Assembly (NCBI GenBank): GCA_964444955.1 | Contig: CAYUJB010000002.1 | Coordinates: 972 to 64,971, forward strand | Direction of reading: 5' to 3' | Source: an uncultured Candidatus Saccharibacteria bacterium | Lineage (GTDB): Bacteria > Patescibacteriota > Minisyncoccia > 2-02-FULL-40-12 > GWA2-44-9 | Length of the DNA stretch: 64,000 nucleotides | Shown: one piece after another, positions 4,797 to 60,430 of the stretch | Layout of the letters: each line of letters starts with the position of its first letter | How positions within the stretch are numbered: the first letter of the stretch is position 1 | Notes under the pieces: generated by a model | Database searches by the model: none | What the model was told of the DNA's origin: nothing | What the model saw: the letters and a program-made list of their open reading frames with translations, nothing else | Program-made: the position numbers and the translations under genes

Positions 4797-5283
4797 TTGA
4801 TGTTCCGCTCCCTTTCCCACTCTCCGACTCGTCAGTTCGCACAATGAGTGACAGCCTGTCCGCATCACAGGCGAAGCATCCGAATCTCCGCATTCCATCC
4901 CGCCTCTGGCGGGATGTCGGTGCTCCGGTCATGCGGATGCTCGCCGATGCGGACTACGACTGTCATCTGATATGTACTCACCCGCTGTACTATGACTCGC
5001 TTGGAGAGTGGGGAAGAGTCGCGTCGCATACACCCACCAACAAGTCGATGCGCATTCTTTTGGCTTAGGTATATCCTTTTTGAGCGACGGGTACCCGTGA
5101 CATCAATTGGCATAGTATGCGGGTTCGCACATATACAGCGACATTCGTTATCCAGGTCGCAGATAGCCGCATGACCGGAGCATAAAGCCGTAGGCGCCTG
5201 CGGAGATTCGGATATCGTATACCTGGATAGAATGTCGTTCGAATGCGAACTGACAAGTGAAGTTATGGGTAAACGGAGCGAGA
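4797..5283. repeat. Noncoding structured/repeat element, copy 1 (paralog of 60048-60430); candidate large ncRNA or MITE-like element
   Basis: No credible ORF. Three nested perfect long-range inverted pairs: 4831-4841/5244-5254 (11 bp), 4878-4892/5199-5213 (15 bp) and 4921-4936/5167-5182 (16 bp). Local hairpin CCCGCC-TCT-GGCGGG. Blocks 4871-4896 and 4915-4944 are 100% identical to the reverse complement of 60336-60361 and 60279-60308. Confidence 0.6.
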
Positions 5284-5886: not shown

Positions 5887-7254
5887 TTAGAGGAAGTCGG
5901 AATCAGTGTGCACTGTGTCGACTTCGGAGAACTCGAGGTTCTCGGGGTTTATATGAAAATCGATATCACCGGTGGGACCGTTACGGTGCTTAGCAATCAT
6001 GAGTGTGGCGAGGTTGGCGCGGCCTTCTTCTTGTGCACGCTGAAAGTTGACCTTGTCATCGCGGTGAATAAACATCACCACATCGGCATCTTGCTCAATG
6101 GAACCCGAATCGCGAAGGTCCGATAGTCGCGGCCGCGCACCAATCTCTCGGTTTTCCACAGCACGGGAGAGCTGGGAGAGCGCAACCACGGGGATGTTGA
6201 GCTCTTTGGCGAGCCCCTTGAGGCCGCGCGAGATTTCTGTGACCTGCTGCACCGCAGAATCGTAGTTGCGTCGCGCGCTCATGAGCTGTAAGTAATCGAC
6301 AAACAGGATACCGAGGCCGTGCTCGGCCTTGAGGCGGCGTGCCATGGCGCGCATCTGCATTACATTGAGACCCGGCGTGTCATCGATGTAGATGGGCATC
6401 TCGCGCAGCGATGAGATGGCGTTGGTGATTTTGAGAAAATCATTGTACTCACCTTCGTGACTGAGCTTGCCGGTGCGCAACCGCCAGAGCGAAGCTTTTG
6501 CTTTTGCCGAAATCAAACGATCGACAACCTGATCCACGCTCATCTCAAGACTGAAAATACCGACCGGTACTTGCATTTCAGCGACGCGACGTGCGATGTC
6601 GATTGCAAAGGCTGTTTTACCCACCGACGGACGTGCGGCGAGAATGATGAGATCCGATTTTTGGAAACCACCAAGCGTCTGATCAAGTTTTACATGGTTC
6701 GTACCGATACCGCGCAAACGACCGTCGTCCTGAGTTTGGATACGATCCATCGCCCGATCGAGCTCACCGGAGAGCGACCCGAACTTGTTGCTCAGTGTTT
6801 TCTGCGTGACTGAGAATAGCTGCTGTTCAGCCTCCCCGAGAATCGCATCGATGTCCTCGTCTTCGCGATGTGCCAGCCCTTGGAGTTGGTGAGAAACATC
6901 CAAAAGATCGCGCAAACTCTTTTTGCGTTGGACGATGCGCGCGTAGGTTTGCACGTGCGCTGAAGTGGGCACCTCGCTGGCTAGTGCGGTCAGAAACGCC
7001 GAGCCACCGACGGCATCGAGTTGACCCTTGTCTTTCAAGCGCGTGCTTACCGATAAGATATCGATGTTCTCGCGACTCTCCCACAGATCGGTGAGTGCTG
7101 CCCAGATCATCTGGTGGCTTCGCTGGTAGAAGTGGTCCGCGGTCACCATATCCACCACGCGGTGAATCGCCTCACGGTCAGTGAGGAGCGAACCCAAAAG
7201 CGACTTCTCTGCTTCGAGGTTTTGCGGTGGTCCTTTGTCGGGGAGGGTGGTCAT
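5887..7254 (-). CDS. dnaB: Replicative DNA helicase DnaB
   Basis: N-terminal domain (PQNLEAEKSLLGSLL) and a RecA-like core with Walker A GKTAFAIDIA. Length 455 aa. Confidence 0.9.
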   Translation of the reverse strand: MTTLPDKGPPQNLEAEKSLLGSLLTDREAIHRVVDMVTADHFYQRSHQMIWAALTDLWESRENIDILSVSTRLKDKGQLDAVGGSAFLTALASEVPTSAHVQTYARIVQRKKSLRDLLDVSHQLQGLAHREDEDIDAILGEAEQQLFSVTQKTLSNKFGSLSGELDRAMDRIQTQDDGRLRGIGTNHVKLDQTLGGFQKSDLIILAARPSVGKTAFAIDIARRVAEMQVPVGIFSLEMSVDQVVDRLISAKAKASLWRLRTGKLSHEGEYNDFLKITNAISSLREMPIYIDDTPGLNVMQMRAMARRLKAEHGLGILFVDYLQLMSARRNYDSAVQQVTEISRGLKGLAKELNIPVVALSQLSRAVENREIGARPRLSDLRDSGSIEQDADVVMFIHRDDKVNFQRAQEEGRANLATLMIAKHRNGPTGDIDFHINPENLEFSEVDTVHTDSDFL

Positions 7255-7368
7255 GGGAGCGCGTATGCTTCACTAGTATCTGTGAAAGATTCTTCCTTCG
7301 CAACTCATCTGTGGAGTGACTGTGTAGAAGTAATGGGAAAGCGATGAGCGTAAAGCGTTTAGGGCACA

Positions 7369-7396
7369 TTGACGGTAGAAGTTGGAGTGGCATAAT
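7369..7396 (+). promoter_or_regulatory. sigma70-like promoter (TTGACG-16-CATAAT) for the three-gene small-protein operon
   Basis: Hexamers seen directly in the sequence. A Shine-Dalgarno AAGGAGG lies 4-5 nt before the ATG at 7423. Confidence 0.5.
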
Positions 7397-7422
7397 GCGA
7401 GAACCTTAACAAAGGAGGTAGT

Positions 7423-7911
7423 ATGAGCTCACCATATGGAGATGCCATGAACCTCGCAGCCCGAGGCATTCTGATTTCAAGCTTCTCCACTGAATTGCGA
7501 GGAGATGAAGATGAAGATCAAGATCGCGAACGCCTCGCACGTTTTGCTGCGCTGATGCTTGAAGAGGCGCGATCATGGGCGTATGCGCATGATTTCAGTG
7601 GCAGCAGGAAAGATATGCGCATCAAGGGCGATCGCTATGAGCTGCTTCAAGTCTATCAGGCGTTGTTTAGCGGTCGCTCCTACACGCAGTTGATGGCTGA
7701 TGAAGACAATCTGGCCCGATTCTTCCGCTTCACGCGCGACCGAAAGCAGATCGTAGATGTACTTCGCTCGCTGCGCCGCCTCCAACGAGGCAGGCCCATC
7801 ACCGTCCAAGCTCGCGATCGAGTTCTCGCAGTGTGCGATCTCGCGCAACCACTCATTCGTAATCTGTCTGCGGCCGCGCATCATTGGGAAATGAGCCAAG
7901 ACGATGACTAA
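7423..7911 (+). CDS. Hypothetical small Arg-rich protein with C-terminal oligo-Asp tail (ends QDDD); paralog 1 of 3
   Basis: Strong SD. The N-terminus SPYGDAMNLAARGILISSFSTELRG and the segment LRSLRRL...PITVQARDRVLAV align to the protein encoded at 7927-8343. Confidence 0.6.
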   Translation: MSSPYGDAMNLAARGILISSFSTELRGDEDEDQDRERLARFAALMLEEARSWAYAHDFSGSRKDMRIKGDRYELLQVYQALFSGRSYTQLMADEDNLARFFRFTRDRKQIVDVLRSLRRLQRGRPITVQARDRVLAVCDLAQPLIRNLSAAAHHWEMSQDDD

Positions 7912-7926
7912 TCAAAGGAGGTCGAT

Positions 7927-8343
7927 ATGCCGGTATACGGAGATCCGCTAACATTGCATGTGCAAGCGATGGTCTTTCTCAGTATTTCTGAAGCATTGAA
8001 GGGTACTGATAAGAGGAGATCCGCTCGATCAGCTGCTCGTGAAGCATTGCAGTATGTGCGTACGGCGATCATCCACGTAAGTATCTTAACGCGTCGCCGC
8101 AAGAGAATTCGAGAAAATCAAGAATTCTCTCTGATCGCGTGGTGTCACTTCAAATGCGATCCTCGCTTCAGAGACAAGAAAACTGTTCTCGCTCTCATGC
8201 GAACATTGCGGCGAATTCGAAAGGACCACCCGGTGACCGACAAAGCACGAGCAGCGGCTGTTGCGTTCTTCGATCGTCTGTCTGATGAATGCTCCACGAA
8301 GGGCACTTCATCGAGCATGACGATTGGCGAGTCCGATGACTAA
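7927..8343 (+). CDS. Hypothetical small Arg-rich protein with C-terminal Asp tail (ends ESDD); paralog 2 of 3
   Basis: SD AAGGAGG. PVYGDPLTLHVQAMVFLSISEALKG and MRTLRRIRKDHPVTDKARAAAVAF are similar to paralog 1. Confidence 0.6.
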   Translation: MPVYGDPLTLHVQAMVFLSISEALKGTDKRRSARSAAREALQYVRTAIIHVSILTRRRKRIRENQEFSLIAWCHFKCDPRFRDKKTVLALMRTLRRIRKDHPVTDKARAAAVAFFDRLSDECSTKGTSSSMTIGESDD

Positions 8344-8366
8344 CACCAAATACCAGGGAGGTATTT

Positions 8367-8690
8367 ATGAATCGATGTGAAGGCGGCGGCGAATTGAAGA
8401 ATTTGAGAATATCGACGGCATTTTCGCATATACACTCGAAAATACACCCGAAAGTACCGCTCTCTGATGCCGATCTCGACTACATTCGACGTCGCGTCGA
8501 GACTATTCGCAGAGACTGGCGGACTACCTCCGAGGCCGAGCGGTTTTTCACCGCTCTTGAAAGAATAGGAAGCCCGGGATTGCTGTCGGAGCAGCAGTAC
8601 GATGACATGGTGAAATTGTGCGATCGTTTCACGAACGAGTTCCTCGATCGGTATCGTGCCGGAGCCCGAACGCAAGACGATGACGACTAA
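8367..8690 (+). CDS. Hypothetical small protein with C-terminal oligo-Asp tail (ends QDDDD); possible third paralog
   Basis: SD AGGGAGG. Arg-rich helix IRRRVETIRRDWRTTSEAERFF and the Asp tail resemble the two upstream genes only weakly. Confidence 0.55.
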   Translation: MNRCEGGGELKNLRISTAFSHIHSKIHPKVPLSDADLDYIRRRVETIRRDWRTTSEAERFFTALERIGSPGLLSEQQYDDMVKLCDRFTNEFLDRYRAGARTQDDDD

Positions 8691-8696
8691 CGCTCT

Positions 8697-8725
8697 CATC
8701 CCGACCTCACGGTCGGGATTTTCTT
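8697..8725. terminator. Bidirectional hairpin terminator between the small-protein operon and cysS
   Basis: TCCCGACC-TCAC-GGTCGGGA followed by a T-run. Confidence 0.6.
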
Positions 8726-10116
8726 TATTTCTTCTTTGCGACGGGACCGTACGGGGTGTCGTCGATAGTCCAGCCTAGTTCTAAGAGTTGGGCGCGGAGG
8801 CGATCGGAAGTTTCCCAATCTTTGCGTTCACGAGCAGATTGGCGTTCGTCGAGGAGTTGTTCCACCTCGCGCGGCATGGCGATGGTACCTTCAGGAATGA
8901 TGCCGAAGATTTCGAATATCCATTGAAAAAAAGAGGTAAGTGCGGTTACTTCCTCGTGGGTGAGTGCGCCAGTGGCAAGCGCGCTGTTACTTGTGCGAAT
9001 GAGCTCGAACACAGCACCGAATGCAGCTGCGGTATTAAAATCATCATCCATCGCAGTTTCAACCTGCGTTCGTGCTGCGGCGACCGCATCGCCCAAACCG
9101 CTGGACGCTGCTGGTGGCACCACGAGGAGCTTTGCGAGAAGTTCTGCGATGCGTTGTGTCGCCGCGTTGGCAGCTGCGAGGTTCACGTCTGAATAGTCTA
9201 GTGGTGCGCGGTAGTGCGCAGATAAGAAGAAGAAACGTAGCGTGGCAGCGCTGTATTCCTCAAGGAGAACGTGGAGTGTGGCAAAGTTACCCATGCTTTT
9301 ACCCATGCGCTCAGCCTGTACCTGCAAAAAACCCGCATGCATCCAATATTTCACGAACGGTACCAATCCCGACGCCGCCTCTTGCTGCGCTATCTCGGCT
9401 TCGTGGTGGGGAAATTTGAGATCCATACCGCCACCATGGAGGTCGTACTGGGTGCCGAAGAGGTGCTCAGTAATTGCTGTGTCTTCGATGTGCCAACCGG
9501 GACGGCCATCGCCGAGCTGGGCATCCTGCCAGACGGGTTCGCCAGATTTCGAGAGTTTCCACACGCAGAAATCGCCTCGGTTGCGTTTTTTGTCGCTGTC
9601 GTCGATGCGCGATTGTGCATCATCAGCTTGTGCGCCCGTGCGTCCTGAGAGTTTGCCGTAATCAGGGAAGGATGTGAGATCAAAATACCAACCGTCGCCT
9701 TCGATGCGGTATACGCTTCCCTTAGCAATAAGTGTTTTGACCTGTGATATGACCTGGGGGATGTAGTCGGTAGCTCGCGCATACGTTGACACCGCATCAT
9801 TACCCAAGGCTGCCATGTCGGCACGGAATGCTTCTTCGAATTCTCGGGCGAAGGCGAGTGGTTCTTTGCCTACCTGCTGCGCGCGTTGAATAATCTTATC
9901 GTCGATGTCGGTGATGTTCTGAACATAAGTCACGGTGTAGCCGCGATAGCGGAGCCAGCGTGCGACAACATCAAAGATGGTAAACGTGCGGGCATTGCCG
10001 GCGTGAATACGGTCGTAGACCGTGGGACCACACACAAACATCTGCACCTGCGCATCAGTGCGCGGGAGAAATGCTTCGACTTTTCGCGTAAGCGAGTTGT
10101 AGAGTTGCAGTGCCAT
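8725..10116 (-). CDS. cysS: Cysteinyl-tRNA synthetase
   Basis: Class I HIGH-type motif (HAGNAR) and KMGKSMGN (KMSKS). The N-terminus VCGPTVYDRIHAGNAR is typical of CysRS. Confidence 0.9.
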   Translation of the reverse strand: MALQLYNSLTRKVEAFLPRTDAQVQMFVCGPTVYDRIHAGNARTFTIFDVVARWLRYRGYTVTYVQNITDIDDKIIQRAQQVGKEPLAFAREFEEAFRADMAALGNDAVSTYARATDYIPQVISQVKTLIAKGSVYRIEGDGWYFDLTSFPDYGKLSGRTGAQADDAQSRIDDSDKKRNRGDFCVWKLSKSGEPVWQDAQLGDGRPGWHIEDTAITEHLFGTQYDLHGGGMDLKFPHHEAEIAQQEAASGLVPFVKYWMHAGFLQVQAERMGKSMGNFATLHVLLEEYSAATLRFFFLSAHYRAPLDYSDVNLAAANAATQRIAELLAKLLVVPPAASSGLGDAVAAARTQVETAMDDDFNTAAAFGAVFELIRTSNSALATGALTHEEVTALTSFFQWIFEIFGIIPEGTIAMPREVEQLLDERQSARERKDWETSDRLRAQLLELGWTIDDTPYGPVAKKK

Positions 10117-12149: not shown

Positions 12150-13228
12150 ACACTCTGACGAAATATCTTGTCACTGTGCTTAGCATTGTTGCAGTGATTT
12201 GGTTGGTTGAGCGGTTCGTGCCAGCGACGACTTCGCTCGGTGAACGGGTAGCCAGTGATATCCCTGCATCTTCTGTGCAGCCAGCTCTCGAGAAAGAAGG
12301 GAAATATCCACGCGCTCAGGAATTCGTAAAGCCGGGGGAATTCATCAATGCTGAACCTTTCACGCTCGCCTCGCTGATTGGCAAAAAAGTGATTATTGTC
12401 GATTTCTGGACATACTCGTGCATTAATTGCCAGCGCACCCAACCCTACCTCAACGCATGGTATGAGAAATACAAAGACCAAGGGTTGGAAATTGTGGGCG
12501 TACATACCCCTGAATTCGATTTTGAAAAAGTAGCTGATAATGTGCGCGCTGCAGTGAAGCGGGAGGGGATTGTGTATCCGGTGGTGCAGGACAACGAATT
12601 CGGTACGTGGCGAGCATACCAAAACCAGTATTGGCCTCACAAATACCTTATCGATACCGATGGCTATATTGTCTACGATCAAGTCGGCGAAGGTGGTTAT
12701 GAAGAATTTGAAACACACGTTCAGCGGGCGCTCGCCGAACATATGGCTCGCGCGGGTGCTGGTGGCGAGGTGGCGAGTGGAACAGTGCGACCCGGTGATA
12801 TACAAGCCGTTGATTTTAGCAAGATTAAAACACCCGAAATATACCTTGGTGTATTTCGGAATGCACAGTATCTGGGTAATGGGACACCCAGCATCACGGG
12901 CACGCAAACGCTGAGTATGCCCGCTTCAAACACGCAGAAAAAGAACCTCGTGTACCTTGGTGGAACGTGGGAATTCTCTGATCAAGCGGTTCGCTGTGTA
13001 CGTGATTGCGTAGTGCGACTCGCGTACTCCGCACGGCAGGCCAATATTGTTGCAGGTTCACCAACCTCGCAGAGCATACGCGTCCGGCTTGATGGCAAGG
13101 ACGTGCAATCCGTCACCGTTCGAGCAGATACGCTCTATCACGTGATTGACCAGAATACCTACGGTGAACACACGCTCGAGCTTACGGTGCCAACCGGGTT
13201 ATCGTTATTCACCTTTACCTTTAGTTAA
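12146..13228 (+). CDS. resA: TlpA/ResA-like thiol:disulfide oxidoreductase (thioredoxin fold, CxxC) with a C-terminal extension
   Basis: VIIVDFWTYSCINCQRTQPYLNAWYEKYKDQGLEIVGVHTPEFDFEK is classic for TlpA/ResA. N-terminal TM anchor. Confidence 0.75.
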   Translation: MNTLTKYLVTVLSIVAVIWLVERFVPATTSLGERVASDIPASSVQPALEKEGKYPRAQEFVKPGEFINAEPFTLASLIGKKVIIVDFWTYSCINCQRTQPYLNAWYEKYKDQGLEIVGVHTPEFDFEKVADNVRAAVKREGIVYPVVQDNEFGTWRAYQNQYWPHKYLIDTDGYIVYDQVGEGGYEEFETHVQRALAEHMARAGAGGEVASGTVRPGDIQAVDFSKIKTPEIYLGVFRNAQYLGNGTPSITGTQTLSMPASNTQKKNLVYLGGTWEFSDQAVRCVRDCVVRLAYSARQANIVAGSPTSQSIRVRLDGKDVQSVTVRADTLYHVIDQNTYGEHTLELTVPTGLSLFTFTFS

Positions 13229-13232
13229 AAAA

Positions 13233-13266
13233 TAAACCCCCGAGATTGCTCTCAGGGGTGGGGCGG
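13233..13266. terminator. Hairpin terminator, copy 1 of a duplicated 30-nt terminator sequence
   Basis: AAACCCCCGAGATTGCTCTCAGGGGTGGGG with an A/T run. A near-identical copy lies at 13878-13912. Confidence 0.6.
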
Positions 13267-13877: not shown

Positions 13878-13912
13878 AAAAAACAAACCCCCGAGATTGC
13901 TCTCGGGGGTGG
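13878..13912. terminator. Hairpin terminator, copy 2 of the duplicated terminator sequence
   Basis: AAACCCCCGAGATTGCTCTCGGGGGTGGGG. Confidence 0.6.
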
Positions 13913-13914
13913 GG

Positions 13915-32753: not shown

Positions 32754-33598
32754 AAAGCGAACAGTTTCTGTTGAAGTTGCTGTAGCCGCGCCGGACGTTT
32801 CCCCGAAAGGCCGTGTTTCTGAAAGTAACGGATCGCGTCGTTCAAGTGCCATCGTGTTTGTTGTTTAAAGAATACATCGAAAATGCCAAAACGGCCTTTT
32901 GATTCCCGCTGATGGTAGTGGTACATGCGCACTGTAGGTACGTACACTACCGCCAATCCATTTTCCCAGAAGCGATGAGCCCAGTCAACTTCACTCAGAT
33001 AGAGAAAAAACTGTTCGTCCATGTATCCGACGCGTTCGAGCATCGCGCGCGTCGTCATGAGCGCTGACCCCATGAGCCAATCGGTAGTACAGGGAGTTGT
33101 AACATCCATATCACGCATCAAAAAGCGCCTGATGTGATGACGCATGAACGGAATGGGAATGCGTCGTGCCAACATGGTGAGCGGCGTATAGAATCGGAAA
33201 CAGGACTCTTGCCGCGTATCATCAAAATTCAGTAGACCCGGCCCTACGAGCCCCGTGGCGGGATGATCGCGTAGGTACGCCGCAAGTGCCTCAATGGTCC
33301 CAGGTAACACGACGATGTCAGGATTGAGGATGAGCAAATACTCTCCTGTGGCACGGCGTAGTCCCTCGTTGACTCCGCGAGTGTACCCAGTGTTTTCGGC
33401 GAATGGAACGAGTATGAGTCGTTCGAAGAGATTTTTGCAATCATGATGAACAACGTTTCGGGTCTCTGGCGTGCTCGCCGAATCAACCACGATTATTTCG
33501 TGGGAGATGGAGGAATCGAGAACCCGCGCCAATGAGGTAAGTGCCAGACGCAGTAATGGTGGGTTTTTGAAATTGACGATAATGACGGAGAGCGTCAT
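32750..33598 (-). CDS. Family 2 glycosyltransferase
   Basis: LSVIIVNFKNPPLL... VVDSAS... DxD-type GT-A fold motifs. Confidence 0.75.
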   Translation of the reverse strand: MTLSVIIVNFKNPPLLRLALTSLARVLDSSISHEIIVVDSASTPETRNVVHHDCKNLFERLILVPFAENTGYTRGVNEGLRRATGEYLLILNPDIVVLPGTIEALAAYLRDHPATGLVGPGLLNFDDTRQESCFRFYTPLTMLARRIPIPFMRHHIRRFLMRDMDVTTPCTTDWLMGSALMTTRAMLERVGYMDEQFFLYLSEVDWAHRFWENGLAVVYVPTVRMYHYHQRESKGRFGIFDVFFKQQTRWHLNDAIRYFQKHGLSGKRPARLQQLQQKLFAL

Positions 33599-34683
33599 GG
33601 CGTTGGTGATGGCGTGAGCGTAGAGGCAGAAGGAGATGTCAGTGCGGCCGCTGGTGTGGGCAAAACAGGTGAGTCCTGCAATACCGTTTGCAGGAACCGA
33701 TGTATGTGGGCGAGCGTTCCGTCCCGTGGAAGAAGCTGATAGATGCCGCTCACCTTGGTTTCGTAGAGTATGTTTTCTGTGGTCAATTGATATCGCTTGA
33801 TGTGGTTAAGCTTGTCCTGTTGCGCCATCAGATCCTTGAGCGTTCCGAGGTCAAAAATATTGAGATCCGTTTCAATATGTTTTCGAATGGTCGTGATAAT
33901 TTCGAGTGCCTTGAGTGGATCGCTGGTGAGCGAAAGTGCGGCAACCTTTTCTTTGATTGCGAGAAGCACCTGCATTTGGCGCCGGGAGCGATCAAAATCA
34001 CTCGTGGTATACCTACTTCGAGCATAATAGAGTGCCTGCTCACCGGTCAGAGTGCTTGTACCAACAGGGAGTGAGAATTCATATCCCCATTGTTGGGTTT
34101 CATGAAATGGTTTGTCCAGGGTTATCGTGATGCCTCCCAGTGTATCCACCACGGAAAGGAATGCATCAAAATCGGCAACTACAATATTGTCGATGGCTAC
34201 GCCGAGTATGCGACTAAAAATCTTCTTACTACCAGAAATCCCATAATGTGCATACGCCGCATTTATCTTTTCGGTGCGGTCATCGGTAATGCGTACCGTG
34301 AGGTCGCGCGGGATGGATACCAGGGACGCCCGGCCAGTTTTGGTATCCATGGAAAAAAGGAGAATCGTATCGGTGAGGAGTCCCCCGTTCTCAATATCAT
34401 CTCTGCCGCGAATACCGAGCACTAAAATATCGAGCCGATTCTTATCGTTTTCGGGCATCGTGTATTCGGGGTCCTTCGCAAGGGGGATCTGTTCGGGTTC
34501 CGTTGCGTTGCCGCTTACTCCTTGGGCAATACGATTCACCACCGATATGGTTGCGTTGCCCACATGCTCGACTGCAAAGCTTCCAGCGTATACGACGAGG
34601 AACAACGTCACTAGCCACATGCCAGTGCGGAGCCGCGAGCGTTTCGGGTGGTTGGGTACGGGAAGATAATCCAGTGATGTCAT
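33595..34683 (-). CDS. LytR-CpsA-Psr (LCP) family cell-wall polymer transferase
   Basis: N-terminal TM, then LVLGIRGRDD...LLTDTILLFSMD...SIPRDL core. Confidence 0.8.
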   Translation of the reverse strand: MTSLDYLPVPNHPKRSRLRTGMWLVTLFLVVYAGSFAVEHVGNATISVVNRIAQGVSGNATEPEQIPLAKDPEYTMPENDKNRLDILVLGIRGRDDIENGGLLTDTILLFSMDTKTGRASLVSIPRDLTVRITDDRTEKINAAYAHYGISGSKKIFSRILGVAIDNIVVADFDAFLSVVDTLGGITITLDKPFHETQQWGYEFSLPVGTSTLTGEQALYYARSRYTTSDFDRSRRQMQVLLAIKEKVAALSLTSDPLKALEIITTIRKHIETDLNIFDLGTLKDLMAQQDKLNHIKRYQLTTENILYETKVSGIYQLLPRDGTLAHIHRFLQTVLQDSPVLPTPAAALTSPSASTLTPSPTP

Positions 34684-35714
34684 GATAGTAACGTATAGAT
34701 CTGCGAGGCGGATGTTCGCGCGCGCTTCATCACGAGGCGATGCAGTCGAACCATCCGGGGTAGAAGCTGTATGAATCTTCCCACCTCTCGTATAACAGAG
34801 GGCTCAAAGAGAAGTGTGTATCCCAGTACTGCGAGTTCGCGCAGTACGATGCGGGGAAGGTCTCTCAGAATGTTAATAATAGCATCATTTTTGATAATTG
34901 TAAACCGAACGTTAGACCAGTCGAGACGACGTTTTTGAAGACTGATGAGTCGACGTCGAGAGAGGTTTCCAAGCTGCCCGATGATGGGTGTAGATGCAAT
35001 GATCTTGGTTGTAGAACGATCGTGCCATGCGATGGCTGTGGGAACATAAATCTGCCGAAATCCAAAAACCCGCATACGCCACGCAAGATCGAGATCGTCT
35101 CCATATCCCAGTGACCCGACTCGGTATGCGGGATCCACGAGCCAACCATCGATGCGAGATTGCTCGAGGGCAGATCTTCGAAAGAGTGGCGCAGCTCCTT
35201 CGACAGCAAGCAATTCCAACTCATTGTCATATTGTCCCCTGTCTTCTTCGCCTTGTCCTCGATTCGTCACGCGACGTGAGTGGCTAACCTGAAAGCCTGT
35301 CGTATCAATCCGATTGGATTTGTGTACCTGATCGTTGCTTACTTCCATTTGAAGAACCTTAACTTGGATTGCTCCGATGGAGGTGTCACGCTGGAGTGCG
35401 GCGACGGCTTCGGCGGCACAGCGTGAATCCATAATGACATCGGTTAAAAGCATGACATAGGTACCCTCAGTCTGGGGAAGCGTTTGCTCGAAGCCAATCC
35501 ACGGACCCACATTTTCTGATGACAAAATAAGTCGTATCGAAGGATAATCGCGCACGATACTTGCCGTTGCATCGGTTGATGCGTTATCACGAACAATTAC
35601 TTCTATGGGGGTATACGATTGTTGTTGTACTGCATCCAAAACAGGTCGCAGCCAGTGGGCGCCGTTGTGCACGACCAGTACAATACTAAGGAGTGGGTTG
35701 GTTTGTTCGTGCAT
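34680..35714 (-). CDS. Family 2 glycosyltransferase
   Basis: LSIVLVVHNGAHWL... VIVRDNASTDAT. Confidence 0.75.
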   Translation of the reverse strand: MHEQTNPLLSIVLVVHNGAHWLRPVLDAVQQQSYTPIEVIVRDNASTDATASIVRDYPSIRLILSSENVGPWIGFEQTLPQTEGTYVMLLTDVIMDSRCAAEAVAALQRDTSIGAIQVKVLQMEVSNDQVHKSNRIDTTGFQVSHSRRVTNRGQGEEDRGQYDNELELLAVEGAAPLFRRSALEQSRIDGWLVDPAYRVGSLGYGDDLDLAWRMRVFGFRQIYVPTAIAWHDRSTTKIIASTPIIGQLGNLSRRRLISLQKRRLDWSNVRFTIIKNDAIINILRDLPRIVLRELAVLGYTLLFEPSVIREVGRFIQLLPRMVRLHRLVMKRARTSASQIYTLLS

Positions 35715-37266
35715 GGCTCCAAATTAGTGCGGCAGCAAACCCATATGCCAGGAATGCGCGCTCATCAAAGAGTGCCGCATCGGTAAGAAGATAGGCATAT
35801 ATCCATGGCAGGAAAAGGAGCGAGGCCCCCGCATACACCATCCCCACCCCGCTCGCTGCACGAAACCAAGTCCACGCGGCACCAAGAAGACTTCCTAGGA
35901 GAATAATAAATTCTAAACCAGCCGGTATCCCCATCTCAGATGCCACGTGAAGGTAGGCGTTGTGTGCGGTAGACCCCGCTTTTGCTAAAGCTATATTCTG
36001 ATTGAGCACGACAGGAAAGTTGCCGATTCCAACTCCTAAAAGAGGATGGTTGCGGATGGAGCCCGCAGTGGATTTCCAAATCTCGATGCGCAGAGAGTTG
36101 GATGTTTCTCCGAAGTCGAGAATGGATCGCACGCGGTTTCCAAGAATTCCCAAATCACCTTTTCGAATCAAAAACTGTGGTGAAATAAAAATTGGCCACG
36201 CTATCGCGAAGAGCATGAAAAATATCGCGAGGTGGAGTGTGAGATAGCTAAAGAGTGATCGTCGAGCTATATCCACGCTGAGGTGCTTAAGAAGAAAGAT
36301 GCCGAGTATCGCTAGACCTACTACGCCGACACTTGCCGCCCATATACCTCGCGTACCGCTCAGAATTGCAATCAGGAATGCCAAGGGAACCCATACGATG
36401 GCCATACGCGCACGAGTGGTAGCCATAGCGCGCAGCCCCCGCTGTGCTACCGCAAGTATGGGGTCAAGCGACAACGCCAAAAGGGCGGGCATCCCCAGTA
36501 GTACATAGATGGGAAACGTATGAGAATCGGGAAAAAGCGAAAACACGCGCAACGACAACTGGGGACCATAATAGGCTAACCAGGTATTTCCAAGATTCAC
36601 AGCGATATATGACCATTGCGTGCCGAATTGCCTTAGCTGAATCCCCTCCCCCCAGAGGCGCATAAACTGGTATACGTCTATGAAGTAGGTGGATGCGAGC
36701 TGGAGGTATCCCACTGCCACCACGATAATGGTGGAGAGTCCGATCGCTCGTATGACCTGTTCTGCTGTGAGCGATCCACGACGCAACAGGACCCAGAGTA
36801 CCATGGGTGCCATGGAAAGATTTATAAAATAGATAATGCGAATTATGCCCGTTTTAATAAAAAGTGCGCCCAACAGCGAAAGAACAGCAAGTGCGAGGAG
36901 TATGGCTAGTCGTCGGGTGACCGGATGTGATTTAAGCCATGCGCTCGGCTGGGCGCGGGCGAGCTTCCAGGTGGTCGCTAATTCTTGTTGCGTTCGGCGT
37001 TGCCGTACGAGGAGGAGAATAAGGAGGAGCGCAAGTGGTCGCCACATATTGAAGTTATCGAACGAGGTGGTCAGGGGGAGGGCGAGGAAAAGTGGCACAG
37101 CTCGTATAAAAAATAGAACACCGTCTTCAAGAGGAGCTCGTATCATCCACAACATCAAAAATATCGTAGCAACAAGCGCAGTGCTTCGGGGCAGAATGTC
37201 CAATACAATGGCTACAAAAAGAGTGAGGTAGCCGCTAAAAACACGATTAAGGGTAAGGTAGTTCAT
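35686..37266 (-). CDS. O-antigen ligase / Wzy-like polytopic membrane protein
   Basis: More than ten TM helices and a Wzy_C-like region (TAHNAYLHVASEMGIPAGLEFIILL). Start set at MNYLTL (ATGA overlap). Confidence 0.65.
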   Translation of the reverse strand: MNYLTLNRVFSGYLTLFVAIVLDILPRSTALVATIFLMLWMIRAPLEDGVLFFIRAVPLFLALPLTTSFDNFNMWRPLALLLILLLVRQRRTQQELATTWKLARAQPSAWLKSHPVTRRLAILLALAVLSLLGALFIKTGIIRIIYFINLSMAPMVLWVLLRRGSLTAEQVIRAIGLSTIIVVAVGYLQLASTYFIDVYQFMRLWGEGIQLRQFGTQWSYIAVNLGNTWLAYYGPQLSLRVFSLFPDSHTFPIYVLLGMPALLALSLDPILAVAQRGLRAMATTRARMAIVWVPLAFLIAILSGTRGIWAASVGVVGLAILGIFLLKHLSVDIARRSLFSYLTLHLAIFFMLFAIAWPIFISPQFLIRKGDLGILGNRVRSILDFGETSNSLRIEIWKSTAGSIRNHPLLGVGIGNFPVVLNQNIALAKAGSTAHNAYLHVASEMGIPAGLEFIILLGSLLGAAWTWFRAASGVGMVYAGASLLFLPWIYAYLLTDAALFDERAFLAYGFAAALIWSHARTNQPTP

Positions 37267-39239
37267 GCGATGTCGTCGATACTGTGAAGCATACGCTTCG
37301 CGTGTGCCTCCCAAGTATACCGCGAGACTATGGATTGGGATGCATGGATAATTGCTTGGCGCTGCTGCGTGTCGGCGAGGCCACGCTCCAATGCCGCTGC
37401 AAGTGATACCGGTGAAGCATCGGGAGTATAAAATGCGTGATCGCCAAAGATTTCTCGATGCACTGGCGTGTCCATCAGTACTGACGGTACACCATACGAG
37501 AGCGCTTCGAGCGGCGGGAGCCCGAACGCCTCCATATCGGATACGTACACAAAGAGTTTTGCACCTCGGTACGCTGCAGCAAGCTCCTCATCAGTAAGTC
37601 GCTCCGAACGTTTGATTGCTGTGCGACCAAGCTCGGCATTGGTGCGTGCAATAAGCTCATCAATCTGGGGCGGTTGGTACTTATCGGGTCCTACGGCGAG
37701 CAATGTCAGGATTGGGTGGTGGCGTGTAATCTGTCCGAAGGCAAGGATCGTCTCGCGGAGGTGACGACGTGGAAGCCCCTGTCCTACATAGAGAACATAC
37801 TCACCGGAACGCGCCGCTCCGGCGAGTGATGGCGCAACAGCGAGCTCGTTGACGAAAATGCGCTCCTTGCGGATACCAAACAACTTAGCAACGCGCTCTG
37901 CGGAGGCGTGCGTGATCGCCATGATACGAGTCGCTCGCGTTGCTGCCCAGGTGGCAAAAATGCCGTATGCCAATCGGTAGCGGATTGGTAAATCGTGGCC
38001 ACGAATTTCATGCCACACATCTTCGGTGAGCATCACGATGCTCTTGCCACGAAAAAGCAGCGGCAGCATATAATTGCTAATAATAGTGACCACGGGGCGA
38101 TCAATCCAGAGACGAATGGGAAAGAAAACAAAGAAATACAGCGAAAAAGAATTAGGCCACCATCGAAACGGCCGCACGAGTGTCGCCCGCACATTGGTGT
38201 GCGCTATCCATGGCTCGTCGGGAATGTGCGATTTAAAATATGCCACGACTTCATACTGCGCACGCACCTCGGGTAGCTGAGTAAATTCCGTAAGAAACCC
38301 CCGAATCTGTCGCGCCACACCCCATGATGCATCCTCGAGTGACTCGCACTCGATAGCAATGCTCGGTCGAGTGCGAATTCTTCCCATGCTACCCAGCACT
38401 CCATCTCGTATACCCGCTATGAGTGCACGGCTTTGGGCGTGTTCAAGTCCCAAAAAAAGCTTGATGACTTGCTTGAACGCAATCCATGCGAGCACCACTG
38501 GCAAAAGCACGCGCGCTGTCAGTGGCGCATGCGCACGATTGAAGTAGATTGCATTTCTGATGTGGTAGCGCAGTAAGATTGGTGAGCCCAGCGACGTGGT
38601 TGAGCGCGATACAGCGTGGTCAATTGTCGGGAATGCGAGGTGTACAATCGGAAATTGTGCACGCCGTGCGCGCAGCGAAAAATCGGCATCCTCGAAGTAG
38701 AGAAAGTAGGACTCATCAAGATAGCCGCTACGAGCAAATACTTCACGATGCACGATGAGTGCGGCTCCGATGACATACGTGGCATGCTCGCGGGATACCG
38801 GTCGATACAGGTGTGGTAGCGAGGTTGCGTTCCAGGTAATGCATCCCGCATAAGCAGTCTTGCCTCTCTCGTTGATTGGCACTCCCACCACTGCCGGCGG
38901 ATGCGACGTTAACTGTGAGCGTAAGTCTCCTACAAAAGAAGGCGTCACCGTCGTATCGTTGTTGATGAGTGCTACCCAGTCCGCGCCGTGTTCGAGCGCG
39001 CGCTTGATGCCCAGGTTATTGCCGCCAGAAAAACCGCGATTCTGGGGCGAGGAAATGACGGTGAGTACGCGGGTATAACTGGCCGTATATGCCATCAGCT
39101 GTTGTTGATATACAGGCTCGCTGTCATTGTCGATCACAATGCAGTCGAACTGATCGTCGGTTTGCGAGCGAAGTGAATCCAAAAACCGAATCGTGTCTTC
39201 GGTACTATTATAGTTGATGGTAACTAGCGTAAGTTTCAT
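37263..39239 (-). CDS. Two-domain glycosyltransferase (N-terminal GT2 fused to C-terminal GT4-like domain)
   Basis: N-terminus LVTINYNSTEDT...IVIDNDSEP (GT-A). C-terminus EAFGLPPLEALSYGVPSV (GT-B GT4 motif). Confidence 0.7.
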   Translation of the reverse strand: MKLTLVTINYNSTEDTIRFLDSLRSQTDDQFDCIVIDNDSEPVYQQQLMAYTASYTRVLTVISSPQNRGFSGGNNLGIKRALEHGADWVALINNDTTVTPSFVGDLRSQLTSHPPAVVGVPINERGKTAYAGCITWNATSLPHLYRPVSREHATYVIGAALIVHREVFARSGYLDESYFLYFEDADFSLRARRAQFPIVHLAFPTIDHAVSRSTTSLGSPILLRYHIRNAIYFNRAHAPLTARVLLPVVLAWIAFKQVIKLFLGLEHAQSRALIAGIRDGVLGSMGRIRTRPSIAIECESLEDASWGVARQIRGFLTEFTQLPEVRAQYEVVAYFKSHIPDEPWIAHTNVRATLVRPFRWWPNSFSLYFFVFFPIRLWIDRPVVTIISNYMLPLLFRGKSIVMLTEDVWHEIRGHDLPIRYRLAYGIFATWAATRATRIMAITHASAERVAKLFGIRKERIFVNELAVAPSLAGAARSGEYVLYVGQGLPRRHLRETILAFGQITRHHPILTLLAVGPDKYQPPQIDELIARTNAELGRTAIKRSERLTDEELAAAYRGAKLFVYVSDMEAFGLPPLEALSYGVPSVLMDTPVHREIFGDHAFYTPDASPVSLAAALERGLADTQQRQAIIHASQSIVSRYTWEAHAKRMLHSIDDIA

Positions 39240-40309
39240 GACGGTAACTCGACAATAGCCTTCATTCGTCGAGCAAATTGTTCTTCACCATACTGACTGG
39301 CATGGTTCGTTATGTGAGACGCGTCATATGAGGAAAGGCCAGCAGTGATACGCTTCACGCCATCCGCTATCGCCTCTGGAATAGCATCGTCAAAAAATTC
39401 GCCAGTGATTCCCTCAAGTACCGTCTCGGTCGCACCACCACGGCGAAGCGCGAGTACCGGCTTGCCATGCGACATCGCCTCAACTGCAGTAAGTCCCCAA
39501 TCCTCTTCATTGGGAACAATAAGCGCAGTGCAACGATCATAGAGACCATCAAGCTGAGCATCGGTAACGCGCCCGACAAATACGATATTTGTCTGTGAGC
39601 GCCGCTGTAGCTGTCGGAAAAGTGTACCCTCCCCAACAATGACCAGGCGGCAACGTAGCTTGGCGAATGCGTCGATAACTATCTCGAGATCTTTATGCGC
39701 GATGAGACGCCCAACCACAAGATAGTATGCATCGGCGGGGACGCGCGTATAGTCAGGCGTGGCGTGGGCTCGCATGGGTGGGGGTACGACGATAGATGAT
39801 CGATGATAGTACTTCGTGATACGTGCCGCGGTTGTGTTGGATATTGCCAGCAAATGATCAGGTCGTTGGGCGGCAGCGAGATCCCACGAGCGCAGAAGAT
39901 GCCGATAGACATGTGATAGTATGCCGGTGCGTTGGTAGCGATGCGCACGATCCCAAATACTGCGAGTGGGGCTATAGCAATAAGACAGATGCCGCGTGTC
40001 GGGTCGAACAATGATTCCTTTGGAAAAAACGACCGACGAAGAAATGACCGTATCAAACGCAGAAAAATCAAAGGTCTCTATTGCTGATGGCATGAGCGGC
40101 GCCAAGAGCGGATAGTACCGCCAAGCTCCCGGGAGACGCTGTAGTCGTGACGGTCGAATGGTCGCGTTCGGGAGGAGGCGACGAACTGTCTCTGGCTGGT
40201 ACAGTAGCGTGAAGATGGGCGCATCAGGCCACAACCGATGCAAACTTTGAAGAACGCGCTCCGCACCCCCCTCATATATAATCCAATCGTGAACGAGTGC
40301 TATACGCAT
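39236..40309 (-). CDS. Family 4 (GT-B) glycosyltransferase
   Basis: EDWGLTAVEAMSHGKPVLALRRGGATETV. Confidence 0.8.
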   Translation of the reverse strand: MRIALVHDWIIYEGGAERVLQSLHRLWPDAPIFTLLYQPETVRRLLPNATIRPSRLQRLPGAWRYYPLLAPLMPSAIETFDFSAFDTVISSSVVFSKGIIVRPDTRHLSYCYSPTRSIWDRAHRYQRTGILSHVYRHLLRSWDLAAAQRPDHLLAISNTTAARITKYYHRSSIVVPPPMRAHATPDYTRVPADAYYLVVGRLIAHKDLEIVIDAFAKLRCRLVIVGEGTLFRQLQRRSQTNIVFVGRVTDAQLDGLYDRCTALIVPNEEDWGLTAVEAMSHGKPVLALRRGGATETVLEGITGEFFDDAIPEAIADGVKRITAGLSSYDASHITNHASQYGEEQFARRMKAIVELPS

Positions 40310-41317
40310 CTACGAACGCTTCGCAATTACATTCTTTTTATACACCTCTAAGTTTTCAAGCACCTTTCCCGTACCTCGTGCAACGCAGAAGAGTGGATCA
40401 TCAGCGATGCGCGCCGGTACACCCGTTACTTTCGTGATAAGCTCGTCGATATTTCGCAGCAGCGCCCCGCCACCCGAAATAACGATGCCGCGATCCATAA
40501 TATCAGAGCAGAGCTCAGGAGGAGTGACCTCGAGCACGCCCTTGATAATTTGAATGATCTCTCGCAAGTGCTCGCTCAGCGCTTCCGTCACCTCGTTGCT
40601 GGTAATCTGTATAGTTTTAGGAAGTCCAGTCGTGAGGTCACGACCCTTAATGTTGAGCGAATCCTCGTGCGCGCCGCGGAGTGCACTTCCGAGATTAATC
40701 TTGATTAGTTCCGCGGTACGTTCTCCGATGGCAAGCCCATGCTTCTTTTTCACATATTCCACAATCGCCAGATCAAACTTCACGCCACCCACACGAACTG
40801 ATTGTGCCGACACGATGCCGCCGAGAGAAATCACCGCCAATTCAGTGGTACCGCCACCGATATTAAGAATCATGTTGCCTATCGGACTATTGATGGGTAT
40901 TTGAGCGCCGATGGCTGCTAGCACGGGTTCCTTCACTAAAAAAACTGCCTTGGCGCCGGCTGCCAATGTGCACTCTATGACCGCGCGCTTTTCAGCACTG
41001 GTGATGCCCGCAGGCACCGAAACGAGAACCTCAGGTTTCATAAAATGAAACACGCCGCTAGCCCGCTTGATAAAATAACTCAGCATTGCACCCGTCACCC
41101 GGTAGTCCGCAACGGCGCCATCGATCAGAGGTCGGACAATGGTAATGCTATCGGGTGCTCTCCCGATCATATCTTTAGCTGCATTACCAACGGCAAGAAT
41201 ACGATTGTCGAGTACCGAAACGGCGACCACGGATGGCTCATTGATGACAATCCCCTTCTTGGGCGTGTAGACTACGGTATTGGTGGTTCCTAGGTCAATA
41301 CCTATCTTTCTGGACAT
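40310..41317 (-). CDS. mreB: Rod-shape determining actin homolog MreB
   Basis: [13 protein letters not shown]... actin-fold phosphate-1 and phosphate-2 motifs. Start set at MSRKIG. Confidence 0.85.
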   Translation of the reverse strand: MSRKIGIDLGTTNTVVYTPKKGIVINEPSVVAVSVLDNRILAVGNAAKDMIGRAPDSITIVRPLIDGAVADYRVTGAMLSYFIKRASGVFHFMKPEVLVSVPAGITSAEKRAVIECTLAAGAKAVFLVKEPVLAAIGAQIPINSPIGNMILNIGGGTTELAVISLGGIVSAQSVRVGGVKFDLAIVEYVKKKHGLAIGERTAELIKINLGSALRGAHEDSLNIKGRDLTTGLPKTIQITSNEVTEALSEHLREIIQIIKGVLEVTPPELCSDIMDRGIVISGGGALLRNIDELITKVTGVPARIADDPLFCVARGTGKVLENLEVYKKNVIAKRS

Positions 41318-44511: not shown

Positions 44512-45081
44512 CTACTCAGTAGGAGACGGAGTCGCGGTCACTCTTGCTGCGGCGAAAGCAGTATCACGAGCTGTCTCGCAGGTTGCGAGGGTGGCTGTAT
44601 AAGCGCCCTTAGCGGTTTGGAGTGCGCTCTTAGCGGACGCCTCCGCAGACGCCATGGAAGCCTTGCTAGCGGCTTGTGCGGCGGTCATGGTGGCCGAGTA
44701 GGTGTCCTTTGCGGACTTAACGAGCGCCTCATCACCCTTGGCTGCGACGACGGCGTTTCTACGAATTTGGTTGGCAGCTTTCTTTGCGTCACTCAGCGTT
44801 ACCTTCGCGGTTTTGCGGGCGTCGTTAAGCGACTGGCGAGTCCCACGTTCTGCGGTCTGTAGTGTGCGCTTGGCATCATTACGACATATTGCGAATGCCT
44901 TCTTGGCGATAGAAACGCGAACTTCCTTTGGCATGTTGTTTTCGATGCGAAGCTCTTGGCGTTCTGTTTTCTTCGTTCCTACCTCAACGCTCTTCTCACT
45001 ATCATTTCGTGCTGCACTCACAGGAAGCGTCACCGCCAGCGAGAATCCGACTATTGATGCCACGAGAATATATTTGTTCAT
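44512..45081 (-). CDS. Hypothetical exported Ala/Lys-rich helical protein
   Basis: Signal peptide (ASIVGFSLAVTLPVSAA) followed by a low-complexity A/K-rich coiled region. Confidence 0.45.
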   Translation of the reverse strand: MNKYILVASIVGFSLAVTLPVSAARNDSEKSVEVGTKKTERQELRIENNMPKEVRVSIAKKAFAICRNDAKRTLQTAERGTRQSLNDARKTAKVTLSDAKKAANQIRRNAVVAAKGDEALVKSAKDTYSATMTAAQAASKASMASAEASAKSALQTAKGAYTATLATCETARDTAFAAARVTATPSPTE

Positions 45082-60047: not shown

Positions 60048-60430
60048 AGCCCCTATACTACACGAGTACTTCCACCGACGCCACACTTCCAAATTCCGGC
60101 CGCTTCGGCACCCGCATCGGTCTCGCACACGCCTGCCTGCCGGCAGGCAGGGATGATGCCTTCGCCGATATCGGGTGCCTGCGCTGACATGGACCCGCTT
60201 GAGCGAGTCTTCCTCGTTTCCCAGCGAGCCATAGCATGCGACTTCGCACATGATAAGTCGCAGTCGTCGCCCGTAGCAGCGAGCATCCGCATGACCGGAG
60301 CACCGACAACGGCTAAGAAGGCCATCTTAGCCGTTGGAATGCGGAGATTCGGATGCTTCGCTTGCTGCGGGCAGACTGCAGCACCAATGCGAAGTGGCGA
60401 GTCGGGGAACGGGGAAGAGAGCGAGAGGCT
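60048..60430. repeat. Noncoding structured/repeat element, copy 2 (inverted, shorter paralog of 4797-5283)
   Basis: 60279-60308 and 60336-60361 are exact reverse complements of 4915-4944 and 4871-4896. The flanking sequence is about 70% identical to copy 1 read on the opposite strand. The variable hairpin ACGGCTAAG-N8-CTTAGCCGT replaces CCCGCC-TCT-GGCGGG. Confidence 0.6.

Follow-up and report, generated by a model that had tools for sequence, protein, structure and literature searches.

A 64,000-nucleotide stretch of contig CAYUJB010000002.1 (assembly GCA_964444955.1), which we call the window, carries, between dnaB and cysS, a slot with three consecutive small plus-strand genes, here named P1, P2 and P3. 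Coordinates below are window positions, and L-numbers such as L006 or L087 denote the corresponding loci of relatives. An earlier note on this DNA had described the genes as a promoter-driven operon of three tandem paralogs, each with an Arg-rich, highly basic body and an oligo-aspartate tail. That observation was largely correct: the three open reading frames (ORFs) of 162, 138 and 107 residues, their acidic ends (QDDD, ESDD and QDDDD, as read from the ORFs) and the promoter-to-terminator unit, set in a reduced Patescibacteria genome, are all borne out, whereas the picture of three paralogs with a basic body holds only in part. Comparison with relatives shows that the locus is one case of a clade-specific hypervariable cassette array residing in a fixed dnaB/cysS slot.

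P1 and P2 are paralogs that BLASTP aligns from end to end (E 5e-9, 27% identity over 135 columns), in keeping with the similarity at both ends that had been described. P3 behaves differently. Against P1 and P2 it yields BLASTP E values of 0.49 and 6, and hhalign gives the P1/P2 family a probability of 7.9% against P3 and the P2 type 0.3%. A hidden Markov model (HMM) of 11 sequences, covering P1, P2 and a further paralog of relatives that we call Y, recovers all members with E below 1e-31 in a set of 6452 ORFs (P1, 4e-49; P2, 2.5e-58), and the P3 proteins score as noise at E 19–28 (28 for the copy in the window). We define the P1/P2/Y superfamily by a full-length match to this model, including the segment K-K-x-V-L..R-[TS]-L-R-R..G-x-P..R, and both P1 and P2 show such a match. 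Although P3 and the P1/P2 type are both predicted to form four-helix bundles in which a G-x-P turn precedes the final helix, this shared topology and turn are too generic to prove common descent. On the BLASTP, hhalign and HMM results, P3 is rejected as a third paralog, and because it forms a separate family by every sequence test, the array is not a tandem triplication; of the proposed paralogy, the part concerning P1 and P2 stands. Each of P1, P2 and P3 represents an old orthologous group of its own, and other genomes combine the three groups differently.

The DnaB sequence places the host in Patescibacteria/Parcubacteria, with a best match of 59% among GTDB species representatives, to Candidatus Yanofskybacteria. 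Homologs of the array proteins are few. A word-indexed search of 5.8e9 clusters returned, for P1 and for P3, only the protein itself and one relative; an exhaustive HMMER profile search of 1.84e9 representative proteins gave 7 genuine matches, and the 11-sequence profile found four further relatives in the 5.8e9 clusters. No match was obtained by tblastn with P1, P2 and P3 against 80 other Parcubacteria dnaB loci, in JGI metagenome contigs scanned with the P3 and P2 alignments, in viral contigs scanned with the P3 alignment, in phage and plasmid records searched by tblastn with the P3 query only, or in genome contigs scanned for the family pattern. Orthologs of P1 (50–57% identity; L006, L089 and L096) all end in QDDD(D), those of P2 (51–58%; L087, L089, L092 and L096) end in G[DE][ST]DD, and those of P3 (56–61%) end in QDYDD in L006 and QDDDD in L087. 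Yanofskybacteria have the same Nramp-cysS-[slot]-dnaB synteny, and their slot holds a single unrelated membrane ORF. As judged from these searches, the array is restricted to a small group of Parcubacteria (Patescibacteria) at roughly the family level. The census for this group amounts to about eight loci, of which several are on short or low-coverage contigs and one, L097, has many frameshifts.

All relatives with readable flanks, a set that leaves out L093 because its contig of 617 nt stops short of them, carry their genes at this same site, within the order recR-dnaB / slot / cysS-Nramp-hrcA-grpE-dnaK. The position next to dnaB is therefore constant wherever it can be read, but a fixed triplet is not, because gene content varies. 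The window reads P1-P2-P3, L006 reads P1-P3, L089 P1-P2, L096 (a 650-kb contig) P1-Y-P2, L090 a short P1 (P1s) followed by Y, L087 X-P2-P3, L092 X-P2 and L097 X-P2a-P2b-P3. The slot is filled by two to four small genes from at least three sequence families, namely the P1/P2/Y superfamily, P3 and, in relatives, X; Y is a full-length P1/P2 paralog with the C-terminus ..CRL, and X is an unrelated basic protein of 95 residues. Across approximately eight genomes, ORF lengths and motifs are preserved. In L087, each gene has a separate promoter and terminator, and P2 and P3 have in common a 5' untranslated region (UTR), TCTGAAAGTGAGGTT, as well as a stretch of about 50 nt that runs from the tail codons through the 3'UTR and terminator. 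L092 is without the P3 cassette, exactly between the terminators that are duplicated in L087.

The coding bodies in the slot diverge far more than their surroundings. Between L087 and L092, amino-acid identity is 95% for CysS, 95% for Nramp and 99% for HrcA (synonymous divergence, dS, of the flanks 0.33–0.54), cysS and the genes beyond it (L087 2694–6716) are 90% identical in nucleotides, and the intergenic DNA of the slot is 93–100% identical. In the same pair, the body of X has 70–82% nucleotide and 71% amino-acid identity, and that of P2 has 43–60% nucleotide and 52% amino-acid identity with a proportion of synonymous differences (pS) of 0.77, which is saturated. L090 and L096 repeat the pattern: DnaB is 98% and HrcA 94% identical, but Y only 61%, and their P1 bodies defy alignment. 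When the window is compared with L096, the P1 leader and first nine codons have 92% nucleotide identity, and dnaB has 79%. The P2 identity matrix is star-like, with values of 50–59% regardless of how closely the genomes are related, apart from two tighter sub-lineages. The L087/L092 and L090/L096 comparisons fit the diversity-driven function that had been suggested for the array.

This divergence is accompanied by constraint. Within types, dN/dS is 0.15–0.35 where it is computable, dS being saturated in most comparisons, and DnaB and CysS give 0.02–0.06; nonsynonymous differences (pN) fall well below pS in all pairs within types, from which it follows that these are real, constrained proteins. 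Each cassette type is under purifying selection. Because the synonymous sites are saturated as well, the variants represent old lineages rather than recent change in place. Gain, loss and swapping of cassettes by recombination through the common 5'UTR and 3'-end/terminator sequences would most simply explain the pattern.

Two further observations concern the non-coding DNA and the flanks. The intergenic identity of 93–100% between L092 and L087 positions 1325–1504 and 1775–1864 occurs while the flanks differ at 26–39% of synonymous sites, and such conservation above the neutral level could stem either from a regulatory element or from a tract that recombined recently. Separately, the CysS of the window is 66% identical to that of every relative, the relatives being 79–95% identical among themselves, and RecR, DnaB, HrcA and DnaK of the window are 85–97% identical to those of L090 and L096; the Nramp of L096 (8261–9520), at 63%, stands apart in a similar way. 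Mosaicism thus extends past the slot, and these CysS and Nramp outliers suggest gene replacement or recombination right next to it.

The Asp tails are unusual, and they are kept in relatives. A terminal DD is found in all five P1-type proteins (QDDD, QDDDD, EDDDD), all three P3-type proteins (QDDDD, QDYDD) and five of eight P2-type proteins (G[DE][ST]DD). At 80 other Parcubacteria loci, one of 878 ORFs ends in DD and none in DDD, and among the other window ORFs of at least 90 residues none ends in DD. The exceptional P2 proteins end in ..SSRMA, a variant seen in two independent assemblies, or in ..SRM[TK]IEQ, seen in two distinct sequences, and none of the three Y or three X proteins has the tail. 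The earlier note had reasoned that a lack of tailed homologs in related genomes would reduce the genes to orphan ORFs, and such homologs exist. In three loci (L006 990–1010, L090 10318–10335 and L096 5998–6013), the P1 tail codons GAT GAC GAC (GAC) TAG contain the ATG of the next gene (ATG ACG AC.., MTT..), and the preceding Trp-Glu codons supply GGGAAG, similar to a Shine-Dalgarno (SD) motif, such that translational coupling lies within the Asp tail. The tail is also kept where no genes overlap, in P1, P2 and P3 of the window and in P2 of L089 and L096, and a protein-level role of the tail is the better reading.

In composition, the Arg-rich character that had been claimed is found in all three proteins (13–14% Arg). 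A highly basic body is a property of P2 (pI 10.2), which carries an RRRKRIR patch and an LMRTLRRIRK helix, but not of P1 (pI 6.3) or P3 (pI 5.9), in which D+E roughly equals K+R. No hydrophobic segment of transmembrane grade is present in P1, P2 or P3. AlphaFold2 (AF2) models, built on alignments of 9 sequences for P1 and 2 for P3, predict soluble all-alpha bundles: P1 (pLDDT 74.8, pTM 0.69) as seven helices with residues 55–77 disordered, and P3 (pLDDT 85.3, pTM 0.77) as a four-helix bundle (H7–26, H34–50, H55–67, H75–105). Both are helical bundles, as a common fold would have, yet the likeness is too generic to establish one. The tail in both models closes the long last helix, where confidence is reduced. 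P1 has the conserved N-terminus MSSPYGDAMNL, and R118, P125 and R131 are nearly invariant within an RxLRR-G-P segment resembling a helix-turn-helix (HTH). That the proteins belong to no known family agrees with our searches: scans of P1–P3 against Pfam, NCBIfam, PHROGs and PADLOC, and of the X and Y proteins against Pfam, gave nothing above threshold; the P2 and P3 families did not match PDB sequence profiles; Foldseek against PDB and BFVD found no significant fold relative; and a literature search for acidic-tailed four-helix bundles found no match.

The expression signals are strong. In a scan of 7000–9000, TTGACG-16-CATAAT was the sole promoter-like site and the hairpin at 8698–8719 the best terminator-like one, confirming the promoter and terminator already described. 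The -35 element ATTGACGG is kept in L089 and L090, L006 has the equivalent TTGACT-16-TACGAT, and a homologous terminator hairpin, ACATCCCGGC..GCCGGGATTTT, ends the array in L087, L093, L094 and L096. The short gaps between genes (15 nt for P1-P2, 23 nt for P2-P3) are consistent with one transcript. The SD motifs reported upstream of each gene (GGAGG, GGAGG and GGGAGGT) are present and exceptional among window ORFs: in a survey of positions -20 to -4, 59 of 67 crude window ORFs had no SD motif, and GGAGG occurred only at P1 and P2, the SD of P3 having been missed when an antisense ORF displaced P3. A weak hairpin that would occlude the SD is predicted in the P1 leader, for which we looked for covariation support and found none, and an Rfam scan of the array and leader gave no match. 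Context for the upstream boundary comes from a divergent dnaB promoter, which we infer only, because its 8 of 12 matches fall under the scan threshold; both of its hexamers are invariant in a four-locus intergenic alignment. The dnaB leader is apparently very short and SD-less, the inferred -10 lying about 20 nt from the ATG. The P2 coding region also holds a palindrome at 8102–8130, GAGAATTC..GAATTCTC, with two EcoRI sites, which is probably incidental.

Table 1. Positions of the array, its signals and its neighbours in the window, and of the slot ORFs in two Yanofskybacteria loci.
Feature	Position	Strand	Description
dnaB	5887–7254	-	Identity by Pfam; flanks array on P1 side
Inferred divergent dnaB promoter	7275–7303	-	TTGCGA-17-GATACT; context of the array's upstream boundary
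Array promoter, sigma-70-type	7369–7396	+	TTGACG, 16 nt spacer, CATAAT, TG extension
Conserved 5' leader	7398–7422	+	SD AAAGGAGGT, GGAGG at 7414–7418
P1	7423–7911	+	ORF, 162 aa, C-terminus QDDD
P1 tail codons (QDDD)	7897–7908	+	ORF reading
P1-P2 spacer	7912–7926	+	Contains SD AAAGGAGGT, GGAGG at 7917–7921
P2	7927–8343	+	ORF, 138 aa, C-terminus ESDD
P2 tail codons (ESDD)	8329–8340	+	ORF reading
P2-P3 spacer	8344–8366	+	Contains SD GGGAGGT at 8356–8362
P3	8367–8690	+	ORF, 107 aa, C-terminus QDDDD
P3 tail codons (QDDDD)	8673–8687	+	ORF reading
Intrinsic terminator	8698–8729	+	Hairpin 8698–8719, ATCCCGACC-TCAC-GGTCGGGAT, then T-run; between convergent stops of P3 (8690) and cysS (8725)
cysS	8725–10116	-	Identity by Pfam; flanks array on P3 side
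Yanofskybacteria slot ORFs	L007 5557–5838; L008 5461–5862	opposite strand	Hydrophobic, 93 or 133 aa, unrelated to P1–P3

Elsewhere in the window, a pair of inverted repeats of about 100 nt (4868–4962 and 60261–60364), intergenic, 90–97% complementary and 55 kb apart, has its first copy between a terminator and recR, where about 480 nt (4800–5280) are non-coding; it has no Rfam match and could be a small repeated element or paralogous small RNAs. A 37-nt direct repeat (13227–13263 and 13878–13914; 95% identical, 651 nt apart), with a terminator-like hairpin plus A-run, brackets small ORFs. An envelope-glycan cluster (33595–41317, 44512–45081 and 49281–51278), comprising LytR_cpsA_psr, GT2, Wzy_C-like, a GT2+GT1 fusion and GT1, adjoins mreB. 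Several ORFs in or near this cluster have Pro/Thr/Ser-rich C-terminal tips (TPSPTP, TNQPTP, TPSPTE and YPTSTP), which may represent a common C-terminal motif.

We propose, with a probability of roughly 0.35, that the array encodes cytoplasmic binding modules used in conflict with hosts, competitors or phages, each with a variable bundle surface and a docking tip. Their targets, to be sensed or neutralised, would be foreign proteins that vary, for instance phage proteins or the toxins of hosts or competitors, with specificity set by the variable surface of the bundle. Docking would be through the acidic tip, possibly together with the conserved N-terminal YGD peptide, and its site would be a conserved basic surface, either on a partner or on the family's own invariant Arg-rich helix (RxLRR). 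Hosts are known to attack patescibacterial epibionts with Esx-secreted effectors (PMC13622651), and this work, which concerns Saccharibacteria, lends the proposal ecological plausibility and context only.

Several points weigh against such binding modules. At no locus does the slot or its immediate surroundings contain a gene for a toxin, nuclease, recombinase, phage function or other conflict system, and no immunity or defence family is matched, the best PADLOC hit being E 0.0078 for P2. A conserved N-terminus together with a conserved tail is atypical of immunity proteins. The dN/dS values lie below 1 and give no direct sign of positive selection, with dS saturated in most pairs, and the case for hypervariability draws on three genome pairs, some of them on short or low-coverage contigs. 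Because the next gene's ATG sits within the P1 tail codons, conservation of that tail may in part be a nucleotide-level constraint, and the tail is not indispensable, since it is missing from three variants of P2 and from every Y and X protein. A broader version of the proposal, which we regard as rather unlikely, would make the array a previously undescribed, recombination-driven and hypervariable intracellular recognition system of candidate phyla radiation (CPR) bacteria, in which interchangeable four-helix-bundle cassettes supply specificity for changing foreign proteins, invariant ends (YGD and poly-Asp) couple them to a single conserved partner in the cell, and identical UTR/terminator "handles" mediate their gain, loss and swapping.

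It is also conceivable, if unlikely, that these are lineage-specific nucleic-acid-binding or regulatory proteins, whose Arg-rich helices bind DNA or RNA while the Asp tip auto-inhibits or tunes that binding. The acidic tails of HMGB1, T4 gp32 and T7 gp2.5 and the C-terminal tip of Hfq have such auto-inhibitory or tuning effects. The Arg content, the near-invariant R118, P125 and R131, the high pI of P2 with its RRRKRIR patch conserved as R(R/K)KR, and the strong expression signals would all suit a nucleic-acid ligand, as would a tail that, from its position at the lower-pLDDT end of the last helix, is likely exposed. However, P1 and P3 are net neutral to acidic, and no HTH or other DNA/RNA-binding family or fold is matched. 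Moreover, variable copy number and a fall to 50% identity amid flanks at 95–99% are not what one would expect of a housekeeping regulator, and the family is missing from sister lineages of the same synteny.

A toxin-antitoxin (TA) or abortive-infection module, in which basic P2 would be the toxin, neutral-to-acidic P1 or P3 the antitoxin and the common promoter autoregulated, is in our view improbable. It would account for small, tightly spaced genes under a single promoter, for the complementary charges of P2 and its neighbours (pI 10.2 as against 6.3 and 5.9) and for a strain-variable locus. As in HEPN-MNT modules, the proteins are helical bundles of similar size with weak, sub-threshold matches, here to PADLOC CARF_HEPN (P2 only, at the E value given above) and, by Foldseek, to HepT (7ae9/7ae8, probability 0.09–0.14, TM-score below 0.3), and P2 contains an Rx4H motif, RTAIIH. 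Yet HEPN membership is rejected, since the Rx4-6H motif is not conserved: its His is Tyr in the P2 of L089, it lies in helix 2 rather than in the last helix, and it is missing from most P1-type sequences; Pfam gives no match. Unlike HEPN-MNT modules, the array has no MNT partner, and its gene pairing is variable (P1-P3, P1-P2, X-P2, P1s-Y). Paralogy such as that of P1 and P2 is unusual for a TA pair, the L087 genes each have their own promoter and terminator, and the eight different slot contents are at odds with the obligate two-gene pairing of a type II TA operon. No TA family is matched.

Doubtful to a similar degree is the view that the proteins are exported episymbiont effectors, with the N-terminal YGD..L or the acidic tip as secretion signal and the variable bundle meeting host targets. 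Conserved termini flank a variable body at a hypervariable locus with strong expression signals, and most Patescibacteria live as epibionts whose relations with their hosts involve conflict (PMC13622651), all of which would be in line with export. The proteins themselves speak otherwise, having neither a signal peptide-like N-terminus nor a transmembrane segment. There is no secretion-system gene near the slot or among the window ORFs scanned, no other window protein has the tail, and Y, X and three P2 variants do without it.

The earlier note had likened the tails to that of SSB or to DNA mimics, docking on DnaB, SSB or restriction enzymes, which would make these proteins replisome modulators or anti-restriction factors; we consider this very improbable. 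The genes do adjoin dnaB, divergently, in every locus, and their acidic C-terminal tips are conserved. As in SSB, T7 gp2.5 and T4 gp32, a short terminal Asp run, plausibly a docking or autoinhibitory element, is joined to a protein with basic surfaces. The SSB-Ct, however, is defined by a hydrophobic end (D-D-D-I-P-F), and the tips here, in the window and in orthologs alike, are pure Asp without one; the P1 and P3 models are all-alpha bundles without an OB fold or a disordered, flexible linker, and no SSB Pfam match was found. The resemblance to Ocr and ArdA is one of small size and of acidic residues implicated in function, whereas those proteins are globally very acidic (pI about 4) and encoded by phages or plasmids; the array proteins span pI 5.9–10.2, are chromosomal, and have no Pfam, PHROGs or BFVD Foldseek match and no phage, plasmid or viral-contig relative. 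Nothing supports a functional tie to DnaB, which is 94–98% conserved while the small proteins vary freely, and the dnaB-cysS synteny predates the genes, as the unrelated transmembrane ORF in the Yanofskybacteria slot indicates. Finally, that these are meaningless orphan ORFs, or that only nucleotide-level demands, for example from a start codon within the tail or from the terminator nearby, retain the tail, is largely refuted and scarcely credible. In its favour, the P1 tail codons of L006, L090 and L096 do hold the next gene's ATG, with GGGAAG in the Trp-Glu codons before them, and in L087 a duplicated 3' segment includes the tails of both P2 and P3. Against it, pN falls far short of pS in every pair, about eight genomes preserve the lengths and motifs of the ORFs, tails persist without overlap against a DD-end background of 0.1%, and the AF2 folds are confident.

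Judged on sequence evidence, the window holds two small-protein families without known relatives, in a hypervariable array at a core-gene hotspot. Patescibacteria have tiny genomes in which a large share of genes is without known function, and an array of this kind, confined to a handful of uncultured genomes, is unusual for so minimal a genome. Its strong expression signals and fast coding turnover make it a good candidate for an interface with hosts, competitors or phages. If the proposed variable binders with a common Asp-tip docking element prove correct, they would provide new protein families and a compact model of cassette diversification in a minimal genome; if not, the array would still offer two clearly bounded orphan families, specific to their clade, together with a clear, testable hypothesis on structure.

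How, then, does the array compare with known sources of local diversity? It is not the target of a diversity-generating retroelement, in that the 64-kb window contains no template repeat of the array elsewhere and the divergence spans whole coding bodies; in relatives, the genes called near the slot included no reverse transcriptase. Defence or variable hotspots between core genes offer a parallel, with conserved flanking core genes, strain-specific cargo and recombination at the borders, for which the window CysS and the L096 Nramp outliers are the counterpart here. They differ in that the cargo of this slot is 0.8–1.9 kb and consists of tiny helical proteins without enzymatic domains, drawn each time from the same few families. 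Another parallel is with the orphan immunity-gene arrays of polymorphic-toxin systems and acquired interbacterial defence clusters (Ross et al. 2019, reference 12 in PMC13622651). Unlike those, the array has no linked toxin or secretion gene in about eight loci, no Imm or PADLOC match and no recombinase or mobile element, and its proteins have a poly-Asp tip and a conserved peptide at the N-terminus. We do not assign the array to that class, because none of the loci links it to a gene for a toxin, secretion or defence. The likeness is nevertheless considerable: both comprise tandem, small, soluble and often alpha-helical proteins that are highly diverged paralogs, both differ in content and alleles between close strains at a fixed locus, and in both, homologs are few or undetectable. 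Among known patterns, an orphan immunity-gene array or a variable hotspot comes closest.

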